A stretch of 64,000 nt of DNA from Vermamoeba vermiformis (lineage: Eukaryota), in NCBI GenBank assembly GCA_045837725.1, contig JBEWZL010000030.1, forward strand, positions 434,001 to 498,000, written 5' to 3'. Under the pieces are notes generated by a model. That model did not search any database and was not told where the DNA came from. It was given only the letters and a program-made list of their open reading frames with translations. Shown one piece after another: positions 1 to 48,864 of this stretch. Position 1 is the first letter of the stretch, and each line of letters opens with the position of its first letter. Both the position numbers and the translations under genes were made by a program.

Positions 1-86
1 TATAGTCATGAGTAATTCTTTAGATTGCAAACTAATCGTGAGCGCATCCGTTACAAATTGATTCAATACTAACTCTTCAATTATAG

Positions 87-410
87 TTCATGTACTTCGG
101 CACCAATGAATGGGATGACTCAAAACTAGTCACAGAGGCATATTGGAGATCGTTACATTGGCCTGGACACCCTGGCAACGCTCTCGGGTATCACCGCAAG
201 CCTATTCTGTGGCTTCAGCACCTCAAAGCCGTCTCTATTCATACTTTGACTACTGGTGGTCATAGTGTCTACGTTAACGGAGAAAACGAAATGAGAATTA
301 ATCACTACTGGCACGGATCTCGTGGCGCTGCAAAAGGCTTGAACGAGAAATTCGATGACTCCATGAAGAGCTTCGTGGAAATGCTCAAACAACGTCTAGA
401 TAGAGAGTAG
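87..410 (+). CDS. Terminal exon of a gene starting upstream of the window; product uncertain (possibly a glycosyltransferase-like C-terminus)
   Basis: Branch point and TAG acceptor at 85-86, then an open frame to TAG at 408-410. The K-x-I...H...RINHYW pattern is only weakly suggestive. Confidence 0.5.
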   Translation, partial: FMYFGTNEWDDSKLVTEAYWRSLHWPGHPGNALGYHRKPILWLQHLKAVSIHTLTTGGHSVYVNGENEMRINHYWHGSRGAAKGLNEKFDDSMKSFVEMLKQRLDRE

Positions 411-652
411 GACCTACATTGTTTCGCATTACGACCTGGCAATGTTTACACGTGTAAATAAATTTGTATTCTTTGTTTTCGTCGATCGGCTCGTTCGCAA
501 CATTGCCATTAATCTAGATGCGAATAATTCATATTTAGTTCGCGGCAAACTGTGTATCGAGACCGTCGTACATACCTCCGAGCTTCAAAGTTCCTTTGCG
601 TCGCATAAAAAAATATTAAATATTGCGAGTCATTTTACCAAATTTTTCAAGA

Positions 653-3353
653 ATGGAACCCATGCAAGACATAAATGATGAAGGACCAGGTTCTTACAGG
701 TTCTTTGATATACTCTCAGACGAGCTAGCCCTGAATATATTCAAGTTCTTGGATCTCCGCTCTTTATTCGTCTGTTTGGGCGTAAACCACAATTTTCGTC
801 GCTTAATATGTGACCCTAGTGTTGGCGTGGTAAGTGAATCATATATCATCGTAATACCTCTTTTGAAATTCTGTCGTTAATTTCGGTTTCAAAAAATATT
901 TGTAAAATTACATCCAGCTAAAACAACCCGAAACTCTTTTCAAAATATTGAAGATATATAGAATAATCATTGGTCAAAGTATTAATAATTTTCCGTTTCA
1001 GAAAGAAGGAATGATAGATGCAGCTTTCGAATACATTGACAGGCATCAATATATAAAATCAGTAGTAAGTAAAATTAATACGAGTACTCACGAACATATT
1101 ATTTATTTACTTATTATTGAATTAGAATGTTTTAAATACGCTGTTACAAGTGTTTCCGCAGTCTTACGAAGCTTGGAAAGAAAGAAGCGTTTGTTGGGTG
1201 GATCTAAATGAAACAGAAAAGGCATTACCTGACTTATATACAGCACTTAAAGTAAGTACTTCTATGGTGGCAATTACAAATTTTTTTCGTTGCAGTAATT
1301 TTGATTCATGAAACAATTTAGTGTTGTACGGATCCAGCTTATGCTCACATGATCAAATCGCATATTTATTGGCTTAAAGACGATCTAGAAAAGGCGTTGG
1401 AAGAGATGCACAAAGCAGTCGAGCTAAATCCGAAAGAACCACGATTTTATCATTTCAGAGGTACGCTTTTTAAGCTCTATATCTTTCTAGATCCGTTGTT
1501 ATTGAAAAAAGACGAAACGTCGATTCATATTAATCTGTAGATGAAATTTCTCCGCGAGCAATCAATACTCCGGATCTGCTCACAAAATTCCCAAACACAA
1601 TTGAATTGAATAGCTATCGTAGTATATTGATATACTACGGATTACATTGCATTACAATATAATATACTAATAGAGATTTCGATATATTTTGTTCGGAGAT
1701 GTTCCTGTTAGAACTATTGCGTTTTAAATGTTTTCCGATGACGTGAGATTGCAAATCGTTAATCTGGGCTTTTCGTATAGTAATTTACTCGTTCAATATC
1801 TATCATTTGAATAATAAAGTGATCTATACGTAATTTACATCTTTTTTTCGGTCACAAATCTTCGTTTAATTAGCGACTAACCGCTAGCTATATGATGAAA
1901 AGTAGCTTGACTAACGAACCTATATTTAGCTTATATAAGATCACTTATGGCGCGAAGTAACAACAAGGTGCTGTCCGAGAGCGAGATTGGCGACTACGAA
2001 GTAATTTTGGGACTTCCTTATAAGGTAATTTCTTTTTGAATTGTGCGAACATGTGACGTGTATTTACGTCTTGTACAGCGCCAAGCCATCATTTACAGCA
2101 ATTTAGGCAATGTCTATTGCGCCCTGGAGTAAGCATTCCTATTTTTTTAAATTTCGATTGACTAACTTTCGGCGATCGTCCAGACAATATGAGAAGGCGT
2201 TATTGTTTTTCGAGAAAGCTAATGATATGAGACCACAACTGATCGATGGTTATCACAACAAAGCAGTTCTACACTGGAAGTCAAACAATTATCAACGAGT
2301 CAGTTTTATCGGATTATCTTGCGACTATCATTTACTAACGTATACGATCATATTATAGGCACTATCAGAATGCCAAAAGATGTTGGACATCAATCCGGAT
2401 CTCGTCGATGCCTATTCATTTTGTGGACGGTGTGTACCTTTCCGAGCACACTATTGAATTAATCGGTCGCTAATTTATAATGTAGGTGTTATCTATATTT
2501 GCAAAAATACCACGATGCGTTCATATGCTATAACAAGTGCTTAGCAATGTCGCCTGACAGCATCTTTGATCTGAGCATGTGCACGAGTCTCGGTATAAAA
2601 CTAGGAAAAGTCGCTCAAACGCTCGAGACACTTTACCGGCTGTGCAATATTTATCAGACCACAATCGTACAATTGCAAGAGAAGTATTTATTGCTATTAG
2701 CGGAGGACATCAAGAACAAAGAAGACGTCACTGGACTGCCGCACGAGGTGTCAAACTTGGTTGAGTTTGAAGAGACAGAAGATGATTGGATCGCCAATAA
2801 CGCCGCAGACAAACCAGAGTGCGCGAGAGTGCCGTCGTATTTTGTGATGGAACGTTTGAAAGAGTACTGCAAGCTGTTTAAATTCACCAAGAAGAAGATT
2901 TGCGAGTTATTATTTTTGACGTGCAGAAGCGACGAGGCACGAAAAGAAGTCGAAGAGTTGAAGAAGGTATCAAAGCTGTTCACTTTCATCGAACAGTTCT
3001 TGCTGCCCCTCGACATGAGCTTCATTAAGAAAAAAGTGCGAACTATAGGAGAGCTATTATTATACACGGAAACAGTGCAACAACAGCAGTACCGACAAAT
3101 CATGGAGGAGATCAAGAAGTTTGGCGACGTTTTAGATAATAGCCACGAGATGTTGTACGTGCTGTCGTGTTATGTCGTTAAGACGGGCTCGTTGTGGATA
3201 CCAGCTGTATCATTCTTAGATATGGACGCGTTTTGGAAGAGCTTGAAAGACAATGCGAATCCGCTGTTTTTAGAAATGAGCAAGAACGCGTTCAGATTCC
3301 TCAATTATTATGCCTTTTGGCGAACAAATAGACGCTTGCCCGAAGAGCCATAA
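653..3353 (+). CDS. F-box and TPR-repeat protein, multi-exon
   Basis: N-terminal F-box (FDILSDELALNIFKFLDLRSLFVCLGVNHNFRRLICD). TPR-like exons (KALEEMHKAVELNP, YEKALLFFEKA, DAFICYNKCLAMSPD) are joined by GT-AG introns. Confidence 0.8.
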
Positions 3354-5155: not shown

Positions 5156-8100
5156 ATGGCCACACCTGAAGCTAAGCCAACGGTTCCTACTGATTCTGGT
5201 GTTGGGGTAAGTATAGCATCTAGTTTGGCGGATAGCGATTAATATCAAAAAACAATTAATAATCGTATTCGCTATAATACCATTATAACAATATTATTTT
5301 TAATGTGGACGTATTAATTATTTAGCAGATTATTACTTTGGTAGTAACTCTGCATCGAATCAGAAATTTATTATTATTTTCAACTCAATACAATAACGTT
5401 TATTTCGCTTATTTTATGGATAAATGTGGCTAATACAACGGTGGCCGTTATTAATATTATTTTTATTTATTTTAGGCGCCCACTCCCATCCAATCCGAGG
5501 AGCAGATTCTTGATAGAATCAAAAAATGGCAACAATTAAACAGCAAACGATATGCCGAGAAAAGAAAGTTCGGCTATGTTGAACCTCAGAAAGAAGACAT
5601 GCCTCCAGAGCATCTGCGAAAAATTATCAAGGATCACGGTGACATGTCCAGCAAGAAATTCAGACGTGATAAGCGTGTATATTTGGGAGCTTTGAAATAT
5701 ATGCCTCACGCTATTATGAAACTCATGGAAAACATGCCAATGTAAGTATCATATCCGCGCCAATCTGATGCGTTAACCTCAAATCGTAAATTATTTGCAG
5801 GTCATCTAATATTATTTTTTCTTAGGCCTTGGGAAAATGTGCGTCACGTTAAGGTTCTTTACCACATTTCCGGCGCGATCACCTTTGTCAACGAAATCCC
5901 ACGCGTCGTCGAGCCTGTGTACACCGCTCAATGGGGTACCATGTGGGTCATGATGCGAAGAGAAAAGAGAGATCGTAAGCACTTTAAGCGAATGCGCTTC
6001 CCTCCTTTTGACGACGAAGAACCTCCACTTGACTTTGGTGACAACATTTTGGACGTCGAGCCTCTCGATCCGATCCGCATTGATTTGGACGAAGAAGAAG
6101 ACGCTCCCGTCCTCGAGTGGTTCTATGACCCCAAGCCACTCGTAGGCACTCCCTACGTCAATGGTTCCAGCTACAAGAAATGGCGATTGAACACTCCTAT
6201 CCTCGCCAACTTGTACCGTTTGGCCAACCAATTGATGAGCGATTTGGTCGACAAGAACTACTTCTACATGTTCGAAGAGAAGTCTTTCTTCACCGCAAAG
6301 GCCCTCAACAGCGCTATTCCTGGCGGCCCTAAATTCGAGCCTTTGTTCAGAGATTTGGAAGACAACGATGAAGATTGGAACGAGTTCAATGACATTAACA
6401 AGATCATCATTCGTCACCAAATCAGAACCGAGTACAAGGTCGCGTTCCCGTACCTCTACAACGACAGACCCAGAAAGGTCTACTTGGCCTATTATCACCA
6501 CCCACCCGTGTGCTACATTAAGGCCGACGACCCTGACTTGCCCGCGTTCTTCTTCGACCCCCTCATCAACCCCATCGTGTCAGTTAAGGGCAAGAAGAAA
6601 GCCAAGAAGGAAGAACCCGAAGAAGAGGAAGACGACTTTGAATTGCCCGAAGGAGTCAAGCCCTTGTTGAACCAAGACGACTTCGAAATGCCCAAGGGAT
6701 TCAAGCCTTTGCTTCGCGAGAGTGTTCCCGACCTCTACACCGAAAACACTGCCGACGGTATTGCTCTCTACTGGGCTCCTAAGCCTTTCAACCAACGCTC
6801 GGGACGTACTCGCCGTGTTCTCGACGTTCCCCTTGTCAAGACCTGGTACCAAGAGCGCTGCCCTGGAGACTACCCCGTCAAGGTCCGTGTCAGCTACCAA
6901 AAGCTGCTCAAGTGCTACGTCCTTAACAGACTGCACTTCCGACCTCCCAAGCCTAAGACCAAGAAGTCACTCTTCAAGGCTTTCAAGGCTACCAAGTTCT
7001 TCCAATCTACCGAAATCGATTGGGTTGAAGCAGGTTTGCAAGTTTGCCGTCAAGGCTACAACATGTTGAACTTGCTCATTCACCGCAAGAACTTGAATTA
7101 CTTGCATTTGGACTACAACTTCAACTTGAAGCCCATCAAGACTCTTACCACCAAAGAACGTAAGAAGTCTCGCTTCGGTAACGCATTCCACTTGTTGCGA
7201 GAAATCTTGAAGTTGACTAAGCTCGTCCTCGACGCTCACGTGCAATATCGATTGGGCAACGTTGAAGCCTTCCAACTTGCGGACGCTATTCACTACACCT
7301 TCACTCACGTTGGTCACTTGACGGGCATGTACCGTTACAAGTACCGTTTGATGCGTCAAATCAGAATGTGCAAGGATCTCAAGCACTTGATCTACTACAG
7401 ATTCAACACTGGTCCAGTCGGCAAAGGTCCTGGTGTTGGTTTCTGGGCTCCTTCTTGGAGAGTCTGGCTCTTCTTCATGCGCGGCATTGTTCCGCTCTTG
7501 GAGCGATGGTTGGGCAACTTGCTTGCTCGTCAATTCGAAGGTCGTAAGTCTAAGGGCATTGCCAAGACTGTCACCAAGCAACGTGTCGAAAGTCACTACG
7601 ATATCGAACTTCGTGCCGCCGTCCTTCGTGATATCCTGGATATGATGCCCGAAGGCATTCGTCAAAACAAGGCCAAGACCATTCTGCAACACTTGAGCGA
7701 GGCTTGGAGATGCTTCAAGGCCAACATTCCATGGAAAGTTCCTGGTTTGCCCGCTCCTGTCGAGAACATGATCTTGCGTTACGTCAAGGCCAAGGCTGAC
7801 TGGTGGACGTCTGCTGCTCACTACAACAGAGAACGTGTCCGCCGTGGTGCCACCGTCGACAAGACCGTCGTCAAGAAGAACTTGGGTCGTCTGACTCGTT
7901 TGTGGTTGAAGGCTGAACAAGAGCGCCAATTCAACTACTTGAAGGACGGTCCTTACATCTCGCCCGAAGAAGCCGTTGCTATCTACACCACTACCGTGCA
8001 TTGGTTGGAAAGCAGAAGATTCTCCCCGATCCCGTTCCCGCCACTCAGCTACAAGCACGACACTAAGCTCCTGATCTTGGCTCTCGAAAGATTGAAGGAA

Positions 8101-11100
8101 GCTTACGCCGTGAAGAGTCGCTTGAACCAACTTCAACGTGAAGAATTGTCGCTGATCGAACAAGCTTACGATAATCCTCACGAGACCCTCAGCAGAATCA
8201 AGCGTTTGTTGCTTACGCAAAGAACATTCAAAGAAGTTGGCATTGAATTTATGGACTTGTTCACTCACTTGATTCCTGTCTACGAAATCGAGCCTTTGGA
8301 GAAGATCACTGATGCTTACCTTGATCAATACCTCTGGTACGAAGGTGAGAAGCGCAGACTTTTCCCGAGCTGGATCAAGCCCGCCGACAGCGAGCCTCCA
8401 CCATTATTGGTCTACAAATGGTGTCAAGGCATTAATAACTTGACGGACGTCTGGGATACCTCCAACGGAGAGTGCGTGGTGCTCATGCAATCCAAGTTCG
8501 ACAAGTTGTACGACAAGATCGACTTGACTTTCTTGAACAGACTTCTGCGCTTGATTGTCGATCACAATCTTGCTGATTACATGACCGCCAAGAACAACAT
8601 CGTCATTGCCTACAAGGATATGATGCATACGAATCACTACGGTTTGATTCGCGGTCTTCAATTCGCTTCTTTCGTCGTGCAATATTATGCGCTGATTTTG
8701 GATATTTTGATGTTGGGTCTCTCACGTGCCTCTGACTTGGCTGGTCCTGCTAACAAGCCTAACGACTTCTTGACCTTCCCTGACGTTTCTACCGAAACCA
8801 AGTCGCCAATCAGACTCTACACCAGATACATCGACAGGTTCTGGATTTTGTTCCGCTTCACTCACGACGAAGCCAGAGATCTCATTCAACGTTACTTGAC
8901 CGAGAACCCCGATCCTAACAACGAAAACATGGTTGGTTACAACAACAAGAAATGCTGGCCTCGTGACGCTCGTATGCGCCTGATGAAGCACGATGTCAAC
9001 TTAGGCAGAGCCGTCTTCTGGAGCATCAAGAACAGTCTTCCTCCTTCATTGACAACTATTCAATGGGAAGACTCTTTCGTCTCCGTATACAGCAAGGATA
9101 ACCCGAACTTGTTGTTCGATATGGGCGGATTTGAAGTCCGAATCTTGCCAAAGATCCGTGCCTTCAACGAAGAATTCACTTTGAAGGAAGGTGCCTGGAA
9201 CTTGCAGAACGAGAGAACCAAGGAAAGAACCGCACAAGCCTTCTTGCGCGTTGGTGACGACTCCCTCCGCGTCTTCGAGAACCGTGTTCGTCAGATCTTG
9301 ATGGCTTCCGGTAGCACTACCTTCACCAAGATTGCTAACAAGTGGAACACTGCTTTGATTGGTCTTATGACCTACTACCGTGAAGCCTCTGTTCACACGC
9401 CCGAGTTGCTCGATCTTCTCGTCAAGTGCGAAACCAAGATTCAGACTCGTATCAAGATCGGTTTGAACTCTAAGATGCCTAGCCGTTTCCCTCCTGTGGT
9501 CTTCTACACTCCTAAGGAATTGGGTGGTCTTGGTATGCTTTCTATGGGTCACGTCTTGATCCCTCAATCCGATCTGAAGTACGCCAAGCTCACTGAGCGT
9601 GAGACTTCCCACTACCGCGCTGGTATGAGCCACGAAGAAGGTCAACTCATTCCCAACTTGTACCGCTACATTCAACCTTGGGAACAAGAGTTCCAAGACT
9701 CACTCCGTGTCTGGGCCGAGTACGCCATCAAGAGAGACGAAGCCATGAGCCAGAACAGACGTCTTACCTTGGAAGATTTGGAAGACTCGTGGGACAAGGG
9801 TATTCCTCGTATCAACACCTTGTTCCAGAAGGATCGTCACGTCTTGGCCTACGACAAGGGCTGGAGAGTTCGAACTGAATTCAAGGCTTACCAAGTCCTC
9901 AAGCAGAACCCCTTCTGGTGGACTCATCAACGTCACGACGGCAAGTTGTGGAACTTGAACAACTACCGTACCGATATGATTCAAGCTCTTGGTGGTGTCG
10001 AAGGTATTCTCGAACACACTCTCTTCAAGGGCACTGGTTTCCCTACTTGGGAAGGTCTCTTCTGGGAGAAGGCCTCTGGTTTCGAAGAGTCCATGAAGTA
10101 CAAGAAGCTGACCAACGCCCAACGTATGGGTCTCAATCAGATTCCCAACCGTCGTTTCACTCTGTGGTGGTCTCCTACCATCAACAGAGCCAACGTCTAC
10201 GTTGGTTTCCAAGTGCAGCTCGATCTTACTGGTATCTTCATGCACGGTAAAATCCCCACGTTGAAGATCTCGTTGATTCAGATCTTCCGTGCTCACTTGT
10301 GGCAGAAGATCCACGAAAGTGTTGTCATGGATCTTTGTCAAGTCTTCGATCAAGCTTTGGACTCGTTGGAAGTCGAAACCGTTCAGAAGGAAACTATTCA
10401 CCCTAGAAAGTCCTACAAGATGAACAGCTCTTGCGCCGATATCTTGCTCTTCGCTGCCTACAAGTGGCAAGTCTCGAAGCCTTCGCTCTTGACCGACACC
10501 AACGACTCGTTCGACTACGGAACTACAACCAAGTACTGGGTCGACGTTCAACTCAGATGGGGAGACTTTGATTCCCATGACATTGAACGTTACAGCAGAT
10601 CTCACTTCTTGGACTACACCACGGATAACGTCTCCATCTACCCTTCACCCACTGGTTGCTTGATTGGTATCGATCTTGCCTACAACGCTCACTCTGGCTA
10701 CGGTAACTGGTTCCCTGGTGCCAAGCCATTGATCTCTCAAGCTATGTCCAAGATCATGAAGGCCAACCCTGCTCTCTACGTCTTGCGAGAACGTATCAGA
10801 AAGGCCCTTCAATTGTACTCGTCCGAGCCTACTGAACCCTACTTGAACTCTCAGAACTACGGAGAGTTGTTCAGCAACCAGATCATTTGGTTCGTCGACG
10901 ACACCAACGTGTATCGTGTTACCATCCACAAGACCTTCGAAGGTAACTTGACCACGAAGCCCATCAACGGTGCCATCTTCATCTTCAACCCGAGAACTGG
11001 TCAATTGTTCTTGAAGATCATTCACACCTCCGTCTGGGCTGGTCAAAAGCGTTTGGGTCAATTGGCCAAGTGGAAGACTGCCGAAGAAGTTGCTGCACTC

Positions 11101-12579
11101 ATTCGCTCCTTGCCCGTTGAAGAACAGCCCAAGCAAATCATCGTCACCCGTAAGGGTATGTTGGATCCGCTCGAAGTCCACTTGCTCTCCTTCCCCAACA
11201 TCGTCATCAAGGGAAGTGACTTGCAATTGCCGTTCCAAGCCTGCTTGAAGATCGAGAAGCTCGGTGATTTGGTGCTTCGCGCCACTGAGCCTCAGATGGT
11301 CTTGTTCAACTTGTACGACGACTGGTTGCAATCCATCTCGTCTTACACTGCGTTCTCTCGTCTCATTTTGATCTTGAGAGCTCTGCACGTCAACACTGAC
11401 CGCGCGAAGGAAGTCTTGAGACCGCACAAGGACGTCATCACTGAACCTCACCACATCTGGCCCACTTTGTCCAACGACGAGTGGATCAAGGTCGAAGTCG
11501 CCTTGAAGAACTTGATCTTGGCTGATTATGGCAAGAAGAACAACGTCAATGTGACCTCATTGACTCAATCTGAAATCCGTGACATCATCTTGGGTGCTGA
11601 GATTGCTCCTCCTTCTGAGCAACGTAACGAGATTGCTGAAATTGAGAAGCAAGCCCGCGAAGCCTCTCAATTGACTGCCGTTACTACCAAGACGGTCAAC
11701 AAGCACGGAGATGAGATCGTTGTTACTACCACCAGCCCTCACGAGCAGAAGATCTTCTCATCCAAGACCGACTGGAGAGTTCGCGCCATTTCTTCGACTA
11801 CTCTTCACTTGCGTACTGGCCACATCTACGTCAACTCCGATGAGGTCAACGAAGAAGGCTACACCTACGTCATGCCTAAGAACATTCTCAAGAAGTTCAT
11901 CACGATTTCTGATCTTCGTACTCAAGTTGCCGGTTACATGTTCGGTGTTTCTCCTCCAGGCAACAATCAAGTGAAGGAAATCCGTTGCATTGTCATGCCA
12001 CCTCAATGGGGTACTCACTCCTTCGTTCAGTTGCCCAACAGCATCCCAGATCACGAGTTGTTGCGCGACCTCGAACCATTGGGCTGGTTGCACACTCAAC
12101 CCTCCGAGTTGCCTCAAATGGCTCCCTCTGACGTCATCACCCACGCCAAGTTACTCTCGGAGAATACCACCTGGGATCCCAAATCTATCTGCGTCACGGT
12201 CAGCTTGCCTGGTGCTTCTGCCTCGTTGACTGCTTACCGCTTGACTCCTGGTGGCTTTGAATGGGGTCGACAGAACGTCAACAGCGAGCGCGAACAGAAC
12301 TACCAAGGCTACAAACCTTCATTCTACGATCGTGCACCCTTGCTCTTGTCTGATCGTTTCTTGGGCTTCTTCATGGTTCCTGATGTCGGCAGCTGGAACT
12401 TCAACTTCATGAGCGTCAACCACAGCGTTAATATGAAGTATAACTTGACCTTGGGCATTCCTAAAGATTTCTACAATGAGAGTCACCGTCCTGCTCATTT
12501 CTTGAACTTCTCAGAGATGGAGAGCACTGCTACCACTGAGGGAGGCGATAATGTTGATCAAGAAGATTTGTTCTCCTAA
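5156..12579 (+). CDS. PRP8: Pre-mRNA splicing factor 8 (U5 snRNP); exons 5156-5206, 5476-5741, 5826-12579
   Basis: Hallmark sequences [39 protein letters not shown], RNase H-like [10 protein letters not shown] and a Jab1/MPN C-terminus. No intein seen. Confidence 0.99.
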
Positions 12580-13124: not shown

Positions 13125-15976
13125 ATGTTATCATCAGAGTACTACGCGCATAATGGTGCGTATAGAATACAATTACAGCAGGAAGATTGATACATCCGAA
13201 TTATAATTTAAATCTTATCAACTTGAAATTTTGTTCTAATAATCCATAATCCAATCAGTAATACGTTTACAATGATATCATAATATCAATAATTTAATTA
13301 TTACATCGGAATAATACTTACAGTTTTGATTTTAATTAATTTCGAATCAGATGGGTTTGGCGAACCTTTTGATAATGGAAATTTAATACACAATACGCTA
13401 CTCGCCGAAGGTGCAGATACACTTAATGGACACTATGCAGTGATGGACTCAGGAGGATCATACTCCGACTCGCCTGATGGTTCACCGACTGATAACGGAA
13501 CACCGCCTGGCGCAGGCCTTGCAGGGTAAGTGCCTAGTCAAACAATTTCATATACCACTATAATATGATATGGCGCGAGCCAGCACGCGTTTGTGAACTG
13601 CAAGTGCAATTGCGCCTGACTACCAAATCTGGTTCAAACTCCGATCAACTTGTGTTTCGTATTATGAACGCACTAAACTCATATTATCTTTATAGCTATG
13701 CCAGATCATCGTCTCGCTCTAATAGCGGTACTTTTGAAATGACCGTAATCTTGCTACATAAACCGCGAGGATCGAAAGGTGTTTGGGAGAAAGTTTTGGA
13801 TGGAGACGTTCTGCGAGTAACTAGGGTAAGAATTTATTTTGTGCCACTCGTATTATACAAAAATAGTTCAATATTTGCAAAGCCGAATGTTTTTTTTGGT
13901 TTTGGATTCAAATCTTACTCGCGGAATTTCTATCTTTGGTACGCTCAAAGCCGCTTTAATTATTGTCAGCGGTGAAAAATGCGCTACTAAACTGTTTACA
14001 ATTTACTTATTTGAGGTTTTTAACTAACGCACGTGCCTTTGTAGGAGAAAGGAAAACGACTCAAATTACAATGCAGAAGCGAATTTCCATTCGATTATAA
14101 CAACGTTAGCATCTATGTCGTAGATTTGGTTAATATGGAAGTCTGCAATGACGGCGTTACGGTAGAGGTAAGTATCAACCGGCTGAATCCAGTTTAAAAT
14201 TTTTAATTTGTGTCAACTCCTGACAATTTACTTTGAGCCATATAAGTGTTCAGTATCTTGTGCGATATTCGGGCAAATGATTCTGCATTTATTTGCAAAA
14301 CAATTTAAATTTTCCTTTTATGGTCAAGTTAAAAATAGGGATTTAACCTTCCTTTCATGAACAGAAAGTGACGGCTGATACTACTTCGCAACCCGAGTTC
14401 GTTATTGAAATGGAGATCAAGCTCTTCGTTGCTCGCAAGCGAATTCAACTCACTGTTCAAGCGCCCTTGCGCAACGAGGAAGGAGAAATTGCCGGTCGCA
14501 CGATCCAATTCAAAACTACCAGCAGTGGTGGTGCTATGAAGTAAGTGACCGATCAATACTAGTACCAAGTTCATAAGTCTAACGAACGCTGTAGGCCGAT
14601 GTCACCAGCTAATGACAGCGAGCACAACGGATCGGATCAAGATGCCTCACCGACCCATGTGCCTAACTACGGTAGAGAGATGCCTCCTCTTCCTCTGCCT
14701 CCTGCCAAGCGCAGACGTGTGGATTCACCGCCTTCTAAGACTGAGCCTGACCGCGAGCCTGGTTACACAAGCGCTCACATGAAAGAGGAGCACGCGATCT
14801 CAAACCAAGCACCTATCCCGCCTCAAATGGCCCATCAAGCACAGCCGCAACATTATTATAACGCTCAGTCAAATGCTATGGACATGAGCAGCACTAGCGT
14901 TGTTCCCACAATGCCGAATCCAGTTCCCAACCAACATGTCATGAACAGTTATAGTGCCCCTCCCCCTCAACCCGCTGTTAATCCTATGCACTATAGCATC
15001 GAAGCACAGCCCGTTACAGTTGTTCCTAACAGTTTGGACGTCCGCGGCGCCGTTCGAGCGAAAGCTTTCTACCAACTCAGTGACATCCGACTGAAGTTTG
15101 ACGTGGAAGAAATCGTCGATGCCTTGACTATTGTGTCTAACTTGGAAGGCAAGACATACAAGTGGAAGAACAACACACCCGAAAGCGAGGAGCACGGTGG
15201 CAAGCGCGTTATTGGTTTTATTGCGCAACAAGTACAAGAGGTCCTGCCTGAAGCTGTGCGCGAAGAAGAAGACGGCTATTTGGCCGTGAACTACGAGTCT
15301 ATGATTCCAGTGCTCGTAGAGGCCATGAAACAACACCTGCAAGAGTATCAGACAGACAAAATGGACTTCCAAGACCAACTGGATGATCTTCGCACCCAAT
15401 TGGATGAAGGCGCGAATAAGAGCGATGATATGCACAAATTTTTGAAGCACTTGCAGGAGCTGATGAAATCTAAGAAACTTACCTTCACATCTCCAAGACC
15501 GAAAGAATCGAAGAAGAGCAAGTTAAAGCGAATGTTATATAGCAAAAAGTTCCACATTGCAGGTGGTATTGTTGCCGGCCTATTCATTGCGGTCGGCTTG
15601 GCTTTGATTATCTTCAACAACGTCGTCAACTTGCCCGCGTTGAGTAAGTGTTACCCACGATAAATCTTTGTCCTATGCAGTACTAACGGTGTGAAACTTA
15701 GGCGGACAAACAGTTGCCAGTGCTATTCCTGTAGTTAACTTCCTTGGGGGTGCTTCAGCAAAGCCTCCAGCCGTAGGCAAACCTCCCACTGCCCCTTCAC
15801 CAACTACCCCGTCCAGCACGCCAACCACCACAGCCCCAGATGGATCTATCATCAGCGAACCAGCGTTAAATGATGTATATATTGCGTTGAATGTCGTTGG
15901 CAGTATTTTGCTGTGTCTTGGCATAGCGCTTGGTGTAACAGTAGTCGTTTTTTTCGTCAAAGCACGAAATCGTTAA
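13125..15976 (+). CDS. MYRF/MrfA-like membrane-tethered protein with Peptidase_S74 (intramolecular chaperone autoprocessing) domain, coiled coil and two TM helices
   Basis: AFYQL-SDIRLK (Ser codon 15079, Lys codon 15094), YKWK, IGFIAQQVQEVLPEAV, YLAVNYESMIPVLVEAMK. NLS-like PPAKRRR. TM segments FHIAGGIVAGLFIAVGLALIIF and VYIALNVVGSILLCLGIALGVTVVVFF. Seven exons reconstructed in frame. Confidence 0.8.
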
Positions 15977-45467: not shown

Positions 45468-46547
45468 TTATCCGCGAACAACCTTGGTGCGTCTTCGTTC
45501 AGCGCGTTCTCTTCGTCGTTGTTCCTTGGGATCCAATTCACCTTCGTCTTCCTTGGCAGCAGACTAATGGCAATCAATGTTAGCTACGACTAATCAATGC
45601 GTGCGTATCTTACTCTTGCTTGGAGCAAAGGCCAAACGATGGAGGTCCAGATCTTGTACGTGCCAAAGACGGGGATCTGAGCGGACGTTAGAACGTCGTT
45701 TTTTGCGAATACTATGTAAAACTTACAGCAAGATACACGAGCCAGAACCAGTTAGAGATGATGGAAGTCAATTGGACAAACCAGTTAATGTACAAAACGT
45801 CCCAGTAGTACCTACAAGCAGATCCGTTAGCAAACGCAAAATAAAACATTAAATAATCAACGTAACAGCGCGAGCACGACGAGTGCAAAAAACGGAAGGA
45901 GAAAAGAGAAGGGATTGGACTGGCAAAAAAAAATAAAAAAGGTATTGCATCGGAAGGGATTCGAACCCTTGCATCCGAAGATATTGGAGCCTTAATCCAA
46001 CCCCTTAGACCAACTCGGGCACCGATGCGATCGTTGATCCGTCGTCAAGCAAACTCAACATCCTGTCCGGATCGGTCCCATGCGATGTCTTTGTTTGCCT
46101 GTTTGTCTTCGTTTCTCTCTCTCCTTCGTGCTACTTTCGAATACCTCTGCAAACTGTATGAAGTACTTACTCCATCAAGCCCTTTTGTCCCAAGTCCTCA
46201 CCGGGGCTCAGCAATTCGCCAGTGGCCTCGTCAAAAGTAGGCTTTGCGTGGCCGGAGAGGGACCAGTAGCAAAACACGTTCGCGCCAACGAGAAGGAGGA
46301 AGCCAGCATAGTCCCAAAATCCAAGCTCGCTAAACATAATTCGGTAGCCAAGGTGAAGCACGGTCAAAGCCTTGATACTTCAGTGAGCAAATTGAAATTG
46401 TTTCAAAAAAATTGAATTACCGCGTCAAAAATTCCAAATAAATGTATATTAAATAGAACATACCGAGAAACCAAGGACCATCATAATTAAAAATTTCAGT
46501 GTTTTTTGGTTCTGCTTCAGAAGTTTTTTAGCTGCTGCGTTCGCCAT
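45468..46547 (-). CDS. TMEM208: TMEM208/Snd2 (SRP-independent ER targeting), 5 exons
   Basis: MANAAAKK, AKPTFDEATGELLSPGEDLGQKGLMEYYWDVLY, SNWFWLVYLAIPVFGTYKIW. Confidence 0.92.
45870..46142 (-). repeat. Copy A of ~270-bp tRNA-Leu cassette with complementary terminal arms
   Basis: Homologous to 47544-47806, including ~110 nt upstream and ~70 nt downstream of the tRNA. Confidence 0.9.
45946..46028 (-). tRNA. tRNA-Leu(AAG), 83 nt, inside TMEM208 intron 2 (45812-46170)
   Basis: Acceptor stem GCATCGG/CCGATGC, anticodon arm TTGGA-TTAAGGC-TCCAA, long variable arm ATC-TTCG-GAT, T arm AAGGG-TTCGAAT-CCCTT, followed by a T run. Confidence 0.97.
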
Positions 46548-46709
46548 CTGTGCTTATTTGTGCTCTCCTCGTGTCTAATATGAAATATATACTGACAAAA
46601 TATTACAATAACAAAGGTCTTCTGTTGACGTCACTCGTTCGTGAGCAAGCGGAAAATGCTTTGACCGTTTTTTTATCGTGTTTTACCCCCAACTAGTGAA
46701 CCACCACAA

Positions 46710-48864
46710 ATGGCAGAAAGTACAGAAATTAATATTACACCGGTTCAAATACCACCCCAAGAGGATAATAAGTCTGAGGTCAAGGTGGATTCGACAGATT
46801 GCGTCAAAGAAAATGATTCGGTTATCTTGCTAGAAAATGGCCAAAAATACGCCGTCGTGCGCATATCGAAAAAAGCGTAAGTTATTAAGAAATCATCGTG
46901 TTCTGAACGAGGCATATTTAATTATGAATTTTTTATTGATTTTTTCTCTAGTCAAACGAGGATCGGCAAACAACGCTGTAACCTCGAGCCCTTAATTGGT
47001 GCACCATATGGAACATATTTTGAAGCACGAGCTGGCAAGCTTTACAAGTTGGATAAAAAACCAGAACTGTCGCTTTCACTAGCCATTCCAGGTACGCTCA
47101 AACTATCATTTTCTATTTACCAGACAAATCATGTTAACGATCATATGAAGACACGATGGCTGAAGACGGTCAAACGAAGAAGAACAACAAAGAGCTTGTT
47201 GACGATAACAAAGCACAAGGATTATCAGCCGAACAAATCACAGAGATGAAGAAGCAAGGTGTCGGTGGCGAATCGATCATTCAAGCGTTAATTCAAAACT
47301 CGAGCTCATTCCAAAACAAGACCGAGTTCTCACAACAGAAATACATCAAGAAGAAGCAAGAGAAGTACGTACCACTTCGTGCCTTGACATAAATTACTCA
47401 CGCGTTAATCGTGCGCAGATATCTTCATTACATCGAAGTCTTGCCGCCAACAACACAGACACTCACGAAAGTTTACTTCACGAAAGCACCCTCGAAGATA
47501 TGGTAAGCCTCGTGCAAGTGTTAAATGCAATGTTCGTTGCGAAATTCGAAAGCAGCACGAAGGAGAGAAAGAGAAAAGAAGACAAGCAAGGACATCGCAT
47601 GCGACCGATCTGGGCAGGACGTTGAGTTTGCTCAGCGACGAATCAACGATCGCATCGGTGCCCGAGTTGGTCTAAGGGGTTGGATTAAGGCTCCAATATC
47701 TTCGGATGCAAGGGTTCGAATCCCTTCCGATGCAATACCTTTTTTATTTTTTTGACGAACCAAGCCCTTCTCTTTCTCTCCTTCCGTTTTTTGCCTCGGT
47801 GCTGCGATTGACTAATCCCTTTTTAGTTTCTTGCGCTTAGATTCCGTGAGTTACCTGCTTTCCATGGCTGAAATCCGATCCAAAAACCAGATTCTCGTTG
47901 TAGAGGATGCTATGGGTCTTATTGTTGGCTCAGCGGCTCAACGATTGAACGGTAAGTAGAGCTACATTTCCAATTTTCAATCGCTAAGCGGAGAGCTCAG
48001 GTCAAGGACGGATCATCAACTGTTTCCTCGGCCAATCGCCAAACACTCCTATTGCCAGTATGTTTAATTTGAGCAAAGAACATGCGAACGTCATCGAGCA
48101 CATTTCTTTCAAACGCGTACACGAGCTCGCTTTTGGAGATCAAGCGGCTCCCGTCGAGATCAAGGAAGAAGAGCCCGAGGTGAAGATCGAAGATATGCAA
48201 GTAGAAAAGAACCCAGAAGAAGAAGAGAATATCGATATTGAAGAGCCACATGAAGTGCAAGGTAAGTTTTATGCGTCGTGGGAAACGTTTCCCTTTTATG
48301 GTAAGATCTAACCCTCGTTTGACAGAAGGTCAAGAAAAGAACAACACCGCAACCCGAGAAAGCAAACAAAAGGAGACTGAAGAACATTTGTTCGAAGGAG
48401 CTGACTCCCTGATTATTGCTACAACACGCGTTGACGTAAAATCATTGCTTCAAGCCACGTACCCTTTCTTAGTACCAGGCCAACCGTTCAGCATATATTC
48501 ACCGTATATTGAAGTACGCTATCGTTGCCTCTTATAATCAATACTAATCGATATTATCTAGCCTCTTGCCGTCTGTCACCAATGGCTGAAAGAGTCCGAT
48601 ACCGCGTTGAACGTAACGTTAGGCGAAACATTTTACAGAGAATACCAGGTACGTCATATTATCTTATTATATGTATTATGCGTTCAAGGACTGGAATAAT
48701 TAAGTAAACAGGTATTGCCGCAACGCACGCATCCTTTAATGCGAATTCCCGCGACTGGAGGCTATGTTCTTACGGGCACTAAGATAATTAATAATCCGCC
48801 ACCAGCTGCGAATACAAACGAAGCCGCATCGTCGGAGCCTAAGCAAAAGAAACAAAAAGTCTGA
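46710..48864 (+). CDS. TRM6: tRNA m1A58 methyltransferase non-catalytic subunit (Gcd10/TRMT6)
   Basis: LIGAPYG, NNKELVDDNKAQGLSAEQI, FQNKTEFSQQKYIKKKQEKY, LRLDS, REYQVLPQRTHPLM. All exons join in frame. Confidence 0.95.
47652..47734 (+). tRNA. tRNA-Leu(AAG), identical to the 45946-46028 copy, inside TRM6 intron 47503-47826
   Basis: Full cloverleaf as in the first copy. Confidence 0.97.
47740..47753 (+). terminator. RNA polymerase III T-run terminator of tRNA-Leu (equivalent at ~45925-45940 on the minus strand)
   Basis: TTTTTT-A-TTTTTTT begins 6 nt after the discriminator base. Confidence 0.8.

Follow-up and report, generated by a model that had tools for sequence, protein, structure and literature searches.

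Why should two identical tRNA genes sit inside introns of two adjacent genes, each within a stretch of flanking DNA that is itself repeated and whose ends are complementary to one another? The question is raised by a locus of Vermamoeba vermiformis on contig JBEWZL010000030.1 (assembly GCA_045837725.1), where one tRNA-Leu(AAG) gene lies in an intron of TMEM208 and its twin in an intron of the neighbouring TRM6. The DNA analysed, hereafter the window, is the 64-kb stretch from position 434,001 to 498,000 of that contig, and coordinates are those of the window unless another contig is named. A first-pass annotation had read the two units as tRNA cassettes, each clamped by a long-range stem, or alternatively as a mobile element. 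We think it on balance probable that the pair is an old local inverted duplicate whose copies have been kept alike by gene conversion, and that the stem is not essential.

A tRNA pair in spliced introns and in a relative

The window holds exactly two tRNA genes, both tRNA-Leu(AAG) by ARAGORN and by Rfam (RF00005): copy A at 45946-46028 on the minus strand and copy B at 47652-47734 on the plus strand. The two agree at 83/83 nt; with RF00005, whose gathering score is 29, each reaches 55.6 bits, and a canonical cloverleaf is recognised by tRNA models in both. Copy A lies in intron 2 of TMEM208/SND2 (45812-46170, minus strand, 359 nt), where the minus-strand exon translations match PF05620 (E values of 3.6e-12 and 8.4e-8) and the intron splits the profile between positions 26-92 on one side and 93-122 on the other. 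Copy B lies in intron 4 of TRM6/Gcd10p (47503-47826, plus strand, 324 nt), flanked by exons whose plus-strand translations match PF04189 (E values of 2.6e-23 and 3.6e-8). Both introns show a spliced joint with GT..AG ends. The two host genes are divergently transcribed from start codons about 150 bp apart, and each tRNA is in sense relative to its own host. The remaining introns of the TMEM208-TRM6 locus measure 49-93 nt.

Splicing was followed in two sequencing runs labelled "RNA?" (X4 and X5) and in one raw RNA run (X21). All introns of both TMEM208 and TRM6 are absent from the transcript contigs of X4 and X5, and in both runs the two tRNA-hosting introns have been removed exactly at the boundaries given above; six raw reads of X21 show the same exact joint for the TMEM208 intron. 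At the TRM6 intron 4 joint X21 has 0 reads and a depth of 0. This run, which carries the same species label, is about 10% divergent in exons, with 82/183 of its aligned reads less than 90% alike, and because of that divergence it is uninformative on the intron interiors and on the TRM6 joint. Both tRNA genes lie wholly within introns that are spliced from the host mRNA, so that ARAGORN, Rfam, Pfam and the spliced contigs together bear out the first-pass description of identical, sense-oriented tRNA-Leu(AAG) genes in TMEM208 intron 2 and a TRM6 intron.

A metagenome scan with the first 54 nt of the tRNA as query returned two contigs, L001 and L002. The second of these (3961 nt) carries the orthologous, collinear locus in reverse orientation, with an ECD-like gene, TMEM208 and TRM6. 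Among named matches the ECD fragment comes closest to vertebrates, at 36-43% (38-41% for most of them), and to Coelomomyces, at 38%. Two tested exons are 78% and 80% identical to those of the window, and the positions of the tRNA-hosting introns align; the intron sequences themselves are essentially unalignable. The first-pass annotation had proposed looking at orthologous introns in a relative for presence or absence of the tRNA, and both introns of L002 carry it, in sense: the TMEM208 intron (2117-2420, 304 nt) has tRNA-Leu(AAG) at 2243-2325 on the plus strand of that contig, and the TRM6 intron (466-785, 320 nt) has it at 570-652 on the minus strand. The tRNA is identical at 83/83 positions in 5/5 copies, two from the window, two from L002 and one from L001. 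Since the identical tRNA sits in the same two introns of L002, the twin arrangement appears to predate the split between the organism of the window and that of L002.

The stretch between the two start codons (46554-46700), a shared bidirectional promoter region according to the gene models, is 73% identical to its counterpart in L002 (z = 14), at a locus where the introns are unalignable. It includes a 19-nt block at 46625-46643, TTGACGTCACTCGTTCGTG, which is identical in L002 and contains the palindrome TGACGTCA.

Two further observations concern the raw RNA run X21. Over 46200-46900 and 47150-47240 many third-codon positions differ from the window in 100% of the reads, which points to X21 being a different lineage filed under one species name; judged at one compared site, this lineage also seems distinct from that of L002. 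Within TRM6, four reads with two start places run backwards from 48145 to 46776 with an insert of 7 letters at the junction, which may be a back-splice-like joint or may have arisen as an artefact of the library.

Concerted evolution of the flanks

Around each tRNA the two introns share a homologous unit of about 265-275 bp, namely cassette A at 45868-46142 (minus strand) and cassette B at 47544-47806 (plus strand), as delimited by alignment and by inverted repeats (I1-I3). The cassette of about 270 bp reaching into the flanks, as first described, is thereby confirmed. Its largest part is a 191-nt inverted repeat at 91% identity (45927-46117 with 47563-47753), which is extended by 29 nt at 93% and by 55 nt at 71%. 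Outside the cassette about 84 nt of intron remain in A and about 61 nt in B, the size of the ordinary introns at the locus. These splice-site-proximal parts are dissimilar between the copies, none of the comparisons being significant (0/6; 134-1935 of 2000 shuffles reach the observed score), and transposition of a whole intron was rejected on that account.

Comparison within and between the two species gave an inverted order of similarity. The upstream flanks of the window paralogues are 89% alike (94/106) and the downstream flanks 87%; the upstream flanks of the L002 paralogues are 92% alike (98/107), and the L002 copies share a sharply bounded 196-nt tract at 98% that consists of 105 nt of upstream sequence, the tRNA and the T run that follows it. 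Orthologous flanks, window against L002, reach z values of 1.7-2.9, which is inside the range of seven ordinary introns tested (z = -0.2 to 4.5). At syntenic sites that are conserved, a greater likeness between paralogues than between orthologues indicates concerted evolution; tRNA families have been described as evolving concertedly and spawning local copies (PMC4981973, in part). The homogenising mechanism would be gene conversion between the inverted copies, which lie 1.4-1.6 kb apart, and such conversion would by itself, with no function required, give the flanks a "conserved" appearance.

We propose that a Pol III gene for tRNA-Leu(AAG) was duplicated locally and in inverted orientation, together with about 105 nt of its upstream and 20-70 nt of its downstream flank. 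One copy would have lodged in an otherwise ordinary short TMEM208 intron and the other in a TRM6 intron, in hosts that share a divergent promoter; with inverted copies and divergent hosts, each tRNA ends up in sense. This arrangement would have been present before the organisms of the window and of L002 separated, and since then repeated gene conversion between the inverted repeats would have homogenised the copies, leaving paralogues far more alike than orthologues. The host introns are removed by the spliceosome in the normal way. A CT-rich complement to the purine-rich upstream block is well developed only in the window's lineage, where the arms of the TRM6 copy could pair over 24 bp and loop the tRNA out in the manner of a zipper stem, and this stem would be neutral or weak in its effect. 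A simple recent local inverted duplication, the fallback of the first-pass annotation, is half right: a local inverted duplicate fits the data best, but the pair is old, being present in L002 too, and has been homogenised, so that the word "recent" has to go.

In contigs of a DNA run (X2) each cassette occurs in two versions at roughly equal depth, 300/306 over 47437-47632 and 238/219 over 46016-46183, that are about 6-10% different, and the second version of copy B continues with a leader spelled as that of copy A. Such a pattern is suggestive of two haplotypes and of continuing exchange between the twins.

Complementary arms, mobility and transcription

The ends of the cassettes can pair in the host-sense RNA, and in this respect the first reading of both copies was accurate. 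In copy B the 5' arm (47552-47575, plus strand; inverted repeat I5) consists of GCAGCAC (47552-47558) followed by a 17-nt GA tract (47559-47575), and the 3' arm (47768-47805, plus strand) of a 17-nt CT tract (47768-47784), a 14-nt loop and GTGCTGC (47799-47805). The two tracts pair 17/17 and the two heptamers form an outer 7-bp helix, giving a duplex of 24 bp at -39.6 kcal/mol. In copy A the 5' arm (46113-46132, minus strand) is made of AGCACGA and a GA-rich tract, and the 3' arm (45873-45910, minus strand) of a CT-rich tract (45895-45910), a 15-nt internal loop and TCGTGCT (45873-45879). Here 46113-46127 pairs with 45895-45910 with one G-U and one bulge, an outer 7-bp helix is formed by AGCACGA/TCGTGCT (46126-46132 with 45873-45879), and the duplex again has 24 bp, at -26.0 kcal/mol. 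The long-range stem is included in the minimum free energy (MFE) folds of both introns. The arms of copy A are the same sequence by descent as those of copy B, changed by small insertions or deletions in both arms.

How far this pairing goes beyond base composition was assessed against shuffled sequences for the four introns. The longest Watson-Crick helix between upstream and downstream flank is 17 bp in window copy B (shuffle mean 7.6, maximum 13; 0/1000 shuffles reach it) and 8 bp in window copy A (reached by 463/1000); it is 8 bp in the TMEM208 intron of L002 (361/1000) and 7 bp in its TRM6 intron (755/1000). The distal arms form duplexes of -45.4 kcal/mol in copy B (2/1000 shuffles at least as good) and -40.1 kcal/mol in copy A (313/1000), with -14.2 kcal/mol (912/1000) and -25.6 kcal/mol (709/1000) for the TMEM208 and TRM6 introns of L002. 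Whole-intron folds have z values against shuffles of -2.8 for window B, -1.9 for window A, and +0.2 and +0.3 for the L002 introns. Duplex energy over the whole flanks, for which 478/500 shuffles were at least as good in window A and 31/500 in window B, is uninformative because an upstream sequence rich in purines and a downstream one rich in T/C pair strongly after shuffling as well; in window A the observed -48.2 kcal/mol falls short of the shuffle mean, -56.4 kcal/mol. The arms are low-complexity GA/CT tracts that pair in many registers. Among the four introns examined, only the TRM6 copy of the window has a helix beyond composition, and only there (1/4) is the structure more stable than the shuffled controls. 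Of the proposed stem clamp, then, the part that stands is that the pairing exists and exceeds chance in copy B; in copy A it is within chance, and the L002 introns have none above composition.

The comparison with L002 also separates the history of the two arms. Within the upstream flank no 21-mer is better conserved than the GA block of the 5' arm, which matches at 18/21 positions between window B and either L002 copy (0/200 shuffles); the counterparts of window 47552-47575 lie at 2157-2177 and 717-737 of L002. The block is at -95 relative to the tRNA in window B and at -86 in L002, and a MAFFT alignment of the four introns puts it out of register between the species. It may possibly be a splicing enhancer, a Pol III upstream element or merely the edge of a conversion tract. 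By eye, the homologue of the 3' CT arm is decayed in the TMEM208 intron of L002 (22/35 positions, ungapped) and has the appearance of partial deletion in the TRM6 intron. The purine block is thus ancestral and the strong complementarity a feature of the window's lineage; the clamp stem is not conserved between the window and L002.

Several points weigh against an old, converted duplicate with a dispensable stem. Gene conversion is deduced from the pattern of identity, and an independent re-duplication into the same two introns in each lineage, although much less parsimonious, is formally conceivable. The comparison spans two independent lineages only, too few for covariation, and the genome-wide absence of more cassettes rests on the contigs of one DNA run at a likeness of at least 85%. 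The homology unit ends almost exactly at the outer arms, as a terminal inverted repeat (TIR) element would. The 17/17 helix of copy B with its 7-bp outer helix is far beyond chance, and copy A retains 24 pairs although both of its arms carry insertions or deletions. With inter-species flanks near saturation, a neutral perfect inverted repeat would not have lasted from the common ancestor, and the 17-bp repeat must either have been kept by selection in the window's lineage or have been generated or renewed fairly recently. Such a renewal could have come about by slippage, or by ectopic conversion involving the 5' arm of one copy, as its reverse complement, and the 3' arm of the other, two sequences in direct orientation.

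Selection on the arms is the rival that survives best. It holds that they have been selected in the window's lineage as a functional clamp forming a zipper-like stem or, in a variant, that they hold the halves of the pre-mRNA together if RNase P/Z excise the sense tRNA from the Pol II transcript. We regard this as a possible explanation and a doubtful one. The 24 bp of copy B at -39.6 kcal/mol, with 0/1000 and 2/1000 shuffles as good for its longest helix and its distal arms, speak for it, as do the 24 bp kept by copy A at -26.0 kcal/mol despite changes in both arms, the presence of the stem in both MFE folds and the removal of both introns in the transcript contigs of X4 and X5. Zipper stems of yeast are defined as helices of at least 6 bp with linkers of 42-85 nt and a branch-point distance of at least 20 nt (PMC12350175, in part). 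Both window stems, 17 + 7 bp in B and 24 bp with a bulge and a G-U in A, exceed this minimum length. With the branch point placed by a CTAAT motif, the two linkers of copy B, 5' splice site to stem and stem to branch point, come to 49 + ~9 = 58 nt when the outer helix is counted, inside the yeast range, but the outer helix then ends only about 9 nt from the putative branch site, short of the 20-nt yeast minimum; with the 17-bp helix alone they come to 56 + 30 = 86 nt. The orthologous introns of L002 (304 and 320 nt) lack pairing above composition in genes that are intact and have conserved exons, copy A taken alone is within chance, and with GA/CT tracts of this kind a shuffled downstream sequence pairs with the purine-rich upstream flank about equally well. 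Yeast zipper stems are themselves poorly conserved between species (PMC12350175, in part), and for this reason the absence of the stem from L002 weakens a function in the window's lineage without excluding it.

A more specific version of selection on the arms has the purine block, about 90 nt upstream of the tRNA, gain a downstream pyrimidine complement, so that the resulting 24-bp helix was selected to hide the tRNA from the spliceosome and a 324-359-nt intron could work among introns of 50-90 nt, with the twins kept in step by gene conversion. The same helix might also tether the pre-mRNA halves against cuts by RNase P/Z. We think this scenario unlikely; if true, a structural device would here allow Pol II and Pol III genes to occupy the same intron.

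Mobility of the cassettes is quite improbable in our judgement. The claim would be that the cassette is a non-autonomous TIR element, of the type of miniature inverted-repeat transposable elements or akin to introner-like or symmetrical introns, which carried a tRNA into two introns. Terminal inverted repeats are indeed present, as the A/B homology has the arms at its two ends (24 nt at one, 38 nt including a 14-nt loop at the other), the unit sits within otherwise normal-sized introns, and symmetrical introns with terminal inverted repeats of 45-55 nt and no target-site duplication proliferate in Hypoxylaceae (PMC8469720, in part). Against this, just two copies are seen, adjacent to each other, and the pair is apparently ancestral to two species and has not moved. 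The homology overruns the outer 5' arm by about 8 nt, the splice sites lie outside the unit, and no target-site duplication was seen by eye at either cassette, although one could have been lost from an old insertion. In the 64 kb of the window the 24-nt arm has a single occurrence at up to 3 mismatches, and the 17-nt arm is found in the cassettes only, apart from two low-complexity matches with 3 mismatches.

The DNA run X2 and the metagenome contig L001 agree with this. In X2, at a likeness of at least 85%, the summed contig depth is 427-708 in the arm bins, with 5' arm bins up to about 1.5 times the adjacent bins, against 351-724 in the single-copy neighbours and 6679 in the tRNA bin; this measure is not copy number, and what it shows is that far more contigs hold the tRNA than the arms. 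Among the loose ends listed, those of X2 contigs from other tRNA contexts lie at 47641 and 47643, which is 9-11 nt upstream of the tRNA, and at 45926, just past the T run. Contig L001 holds a third identical tRNA-Leu(AAG) at 26-108 (minus strand), in sense beside a BET-domain gene at 127-914 (minus strand) and about 60 nt after a 5'-splice-site-like CAG|GTCAGT of that gene; the contig ends 25 nt past the tRNA, so that an intron and a 3' flank both fit. It has in common with the twins only a leader of about 10 nt and an ATACC(C) plus T-run trailer, the sequence further downstream falling beyond the contig end. The long upstream flank of the cassettes is missing from L001, as it is from the other tRNA-Leu contexts, and the suggestion of a mobile, tRNA-carrying intron element is left without support: arms confined to the cassettes in the window, X2 depth near the baseline of the locus, no long upstream flank in L001 and splice sites outside the unit.

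The tRNAs are most likely transcribed in situ by Pol III. A Pol III terminator-like oligo-T run follows each copy: 5 nt past copy A it reads T6 A T9 on the tRNA strand (45925-45940, minus strand), and past copy B it reads T6 A T7 (47740-47753, plus strand). A T run that is broken by a single A and starts 5 nt after the discriminator base is found in 5/5 copies from two species, those of L002 and L001 being T10-11 with one A. The T arm of the tRNA contains a B-box-like GGTTCGAATCC. RNA reads over the tRNA could come from either copy or from another locus altogether. AATAAA, a poly(A)-signal-like motif, occurs in the reverse complement of every T run, and an antisense insertion would place this motif in the host intron, which would be a simple reason for the sense orientation. 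Least probable of all the readings is that the tRNAs derive from their hosts, cut by RNase P/Z from spliced introns or pre-mRNA in the fashion of mirtrons or intronic snoRNAs so that tRNA-Leu supply is tied to TMEM208 and TRM6 expression: both copies and possibly the third, in L001, are in sense and the idea has been raised for the intronic tRNAs of C. elegans (PMC4999229, in part), but two or three sense cases are not significant (chance 1 in 4 to 1 in 8), AATAAA on the reverse strand of the T run would explain them more simply, and the B-box-like motif and a terminator-like run kept in 5/5 copies, the latter needless for excision from a Pol II transcript, stand against it. Among C. elegans intronic tRNAs 56% are in sense (PMC4999229, in part).

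Elsewhere in the window, PRP8 occupies 5746-12579 on the plus strand with all eight Pfam PRP8 domains in one uninterrupted frame of 2277 codons, among neighbours that contain many short introns; GC content is 0.48-0.51 in this frame and 0.36-0.45 in the surrounding DNA. PRP8 is 82-86% identical to its counterparts in oomycetes, chytrids, plants and animals without distinction, one partial Haematococcus match being at 75%. An open frame at 14563-15663 (plus strand) carries a Peptidase_S74 domain (intramolecular chaperone of endosialidase), presumably as in MYRF-type membrane-bound transcription factors.

Comparison with known systems

The locus illustrates that a nested tRNA pair can remain in two adjacent host genes through the separation of two species even as conversion erases the divergence of its flanks, and it cautions against taking "conserved tRNA flanks" as a sign of function or of mobility. 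If the stem should matter for splicing, the zipper-stem idea would extend beyond yeasts and the locus would offer a simple model of how genomes with short introns tolerate inserted genes. For now the locus is a neat case and no new mechanism.

The closest parallel for the nesting is provided by the intronic tRNA genes of Caenorhabditis, which are likewise nested Pol III tRNAs with tRNA-host pairs conserved between species, there in both sense and antisense orientation; in the part of that work available to us (PMC4999229) they differ from the present case, where identical twins occupy adjacent divergent hosts and have concerted flanks and complementary arms. Full-text searches of a limited literature library found no description of complementary arms flanking intronic tRNA genes. 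As with the concertedly evolving tRNA paralogues described in PMC4981973 (in part), the copies are near-identical within a species at a syntenic locus and orthology is visible only from the flanking anchors. Unlike those, the tract here reaches 105 nt upstream and up to 70 nt downstream and involves two inverted intronic copies.

[quoted passage not shown] It differs from them in that the looped-out segment is a whole tRNA gene and the helix is built of low-complexity GA/CT tracts, in a distance of about 9 nt to the putative branch point instead of at least 20 nt, and in that the stem is not enriched in three of the four introns. Symmetrical introns and stwintrons (PMC8469720, in part), a more remote parallel, share with the cassettes the inverted repeats at the ends of an intronic unit and the lack of a visible target-site duplication. 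These and introners are multi-copy and supply or span splice sites, whereas here there are two adjacent copies that contain no splice sites and have a tRNA inside. The components of the locus are all known from such systems; it is their combination, twins in divergent neighbours with a long converted flank and a lineage-specific stem, that makes it a modest new instance.

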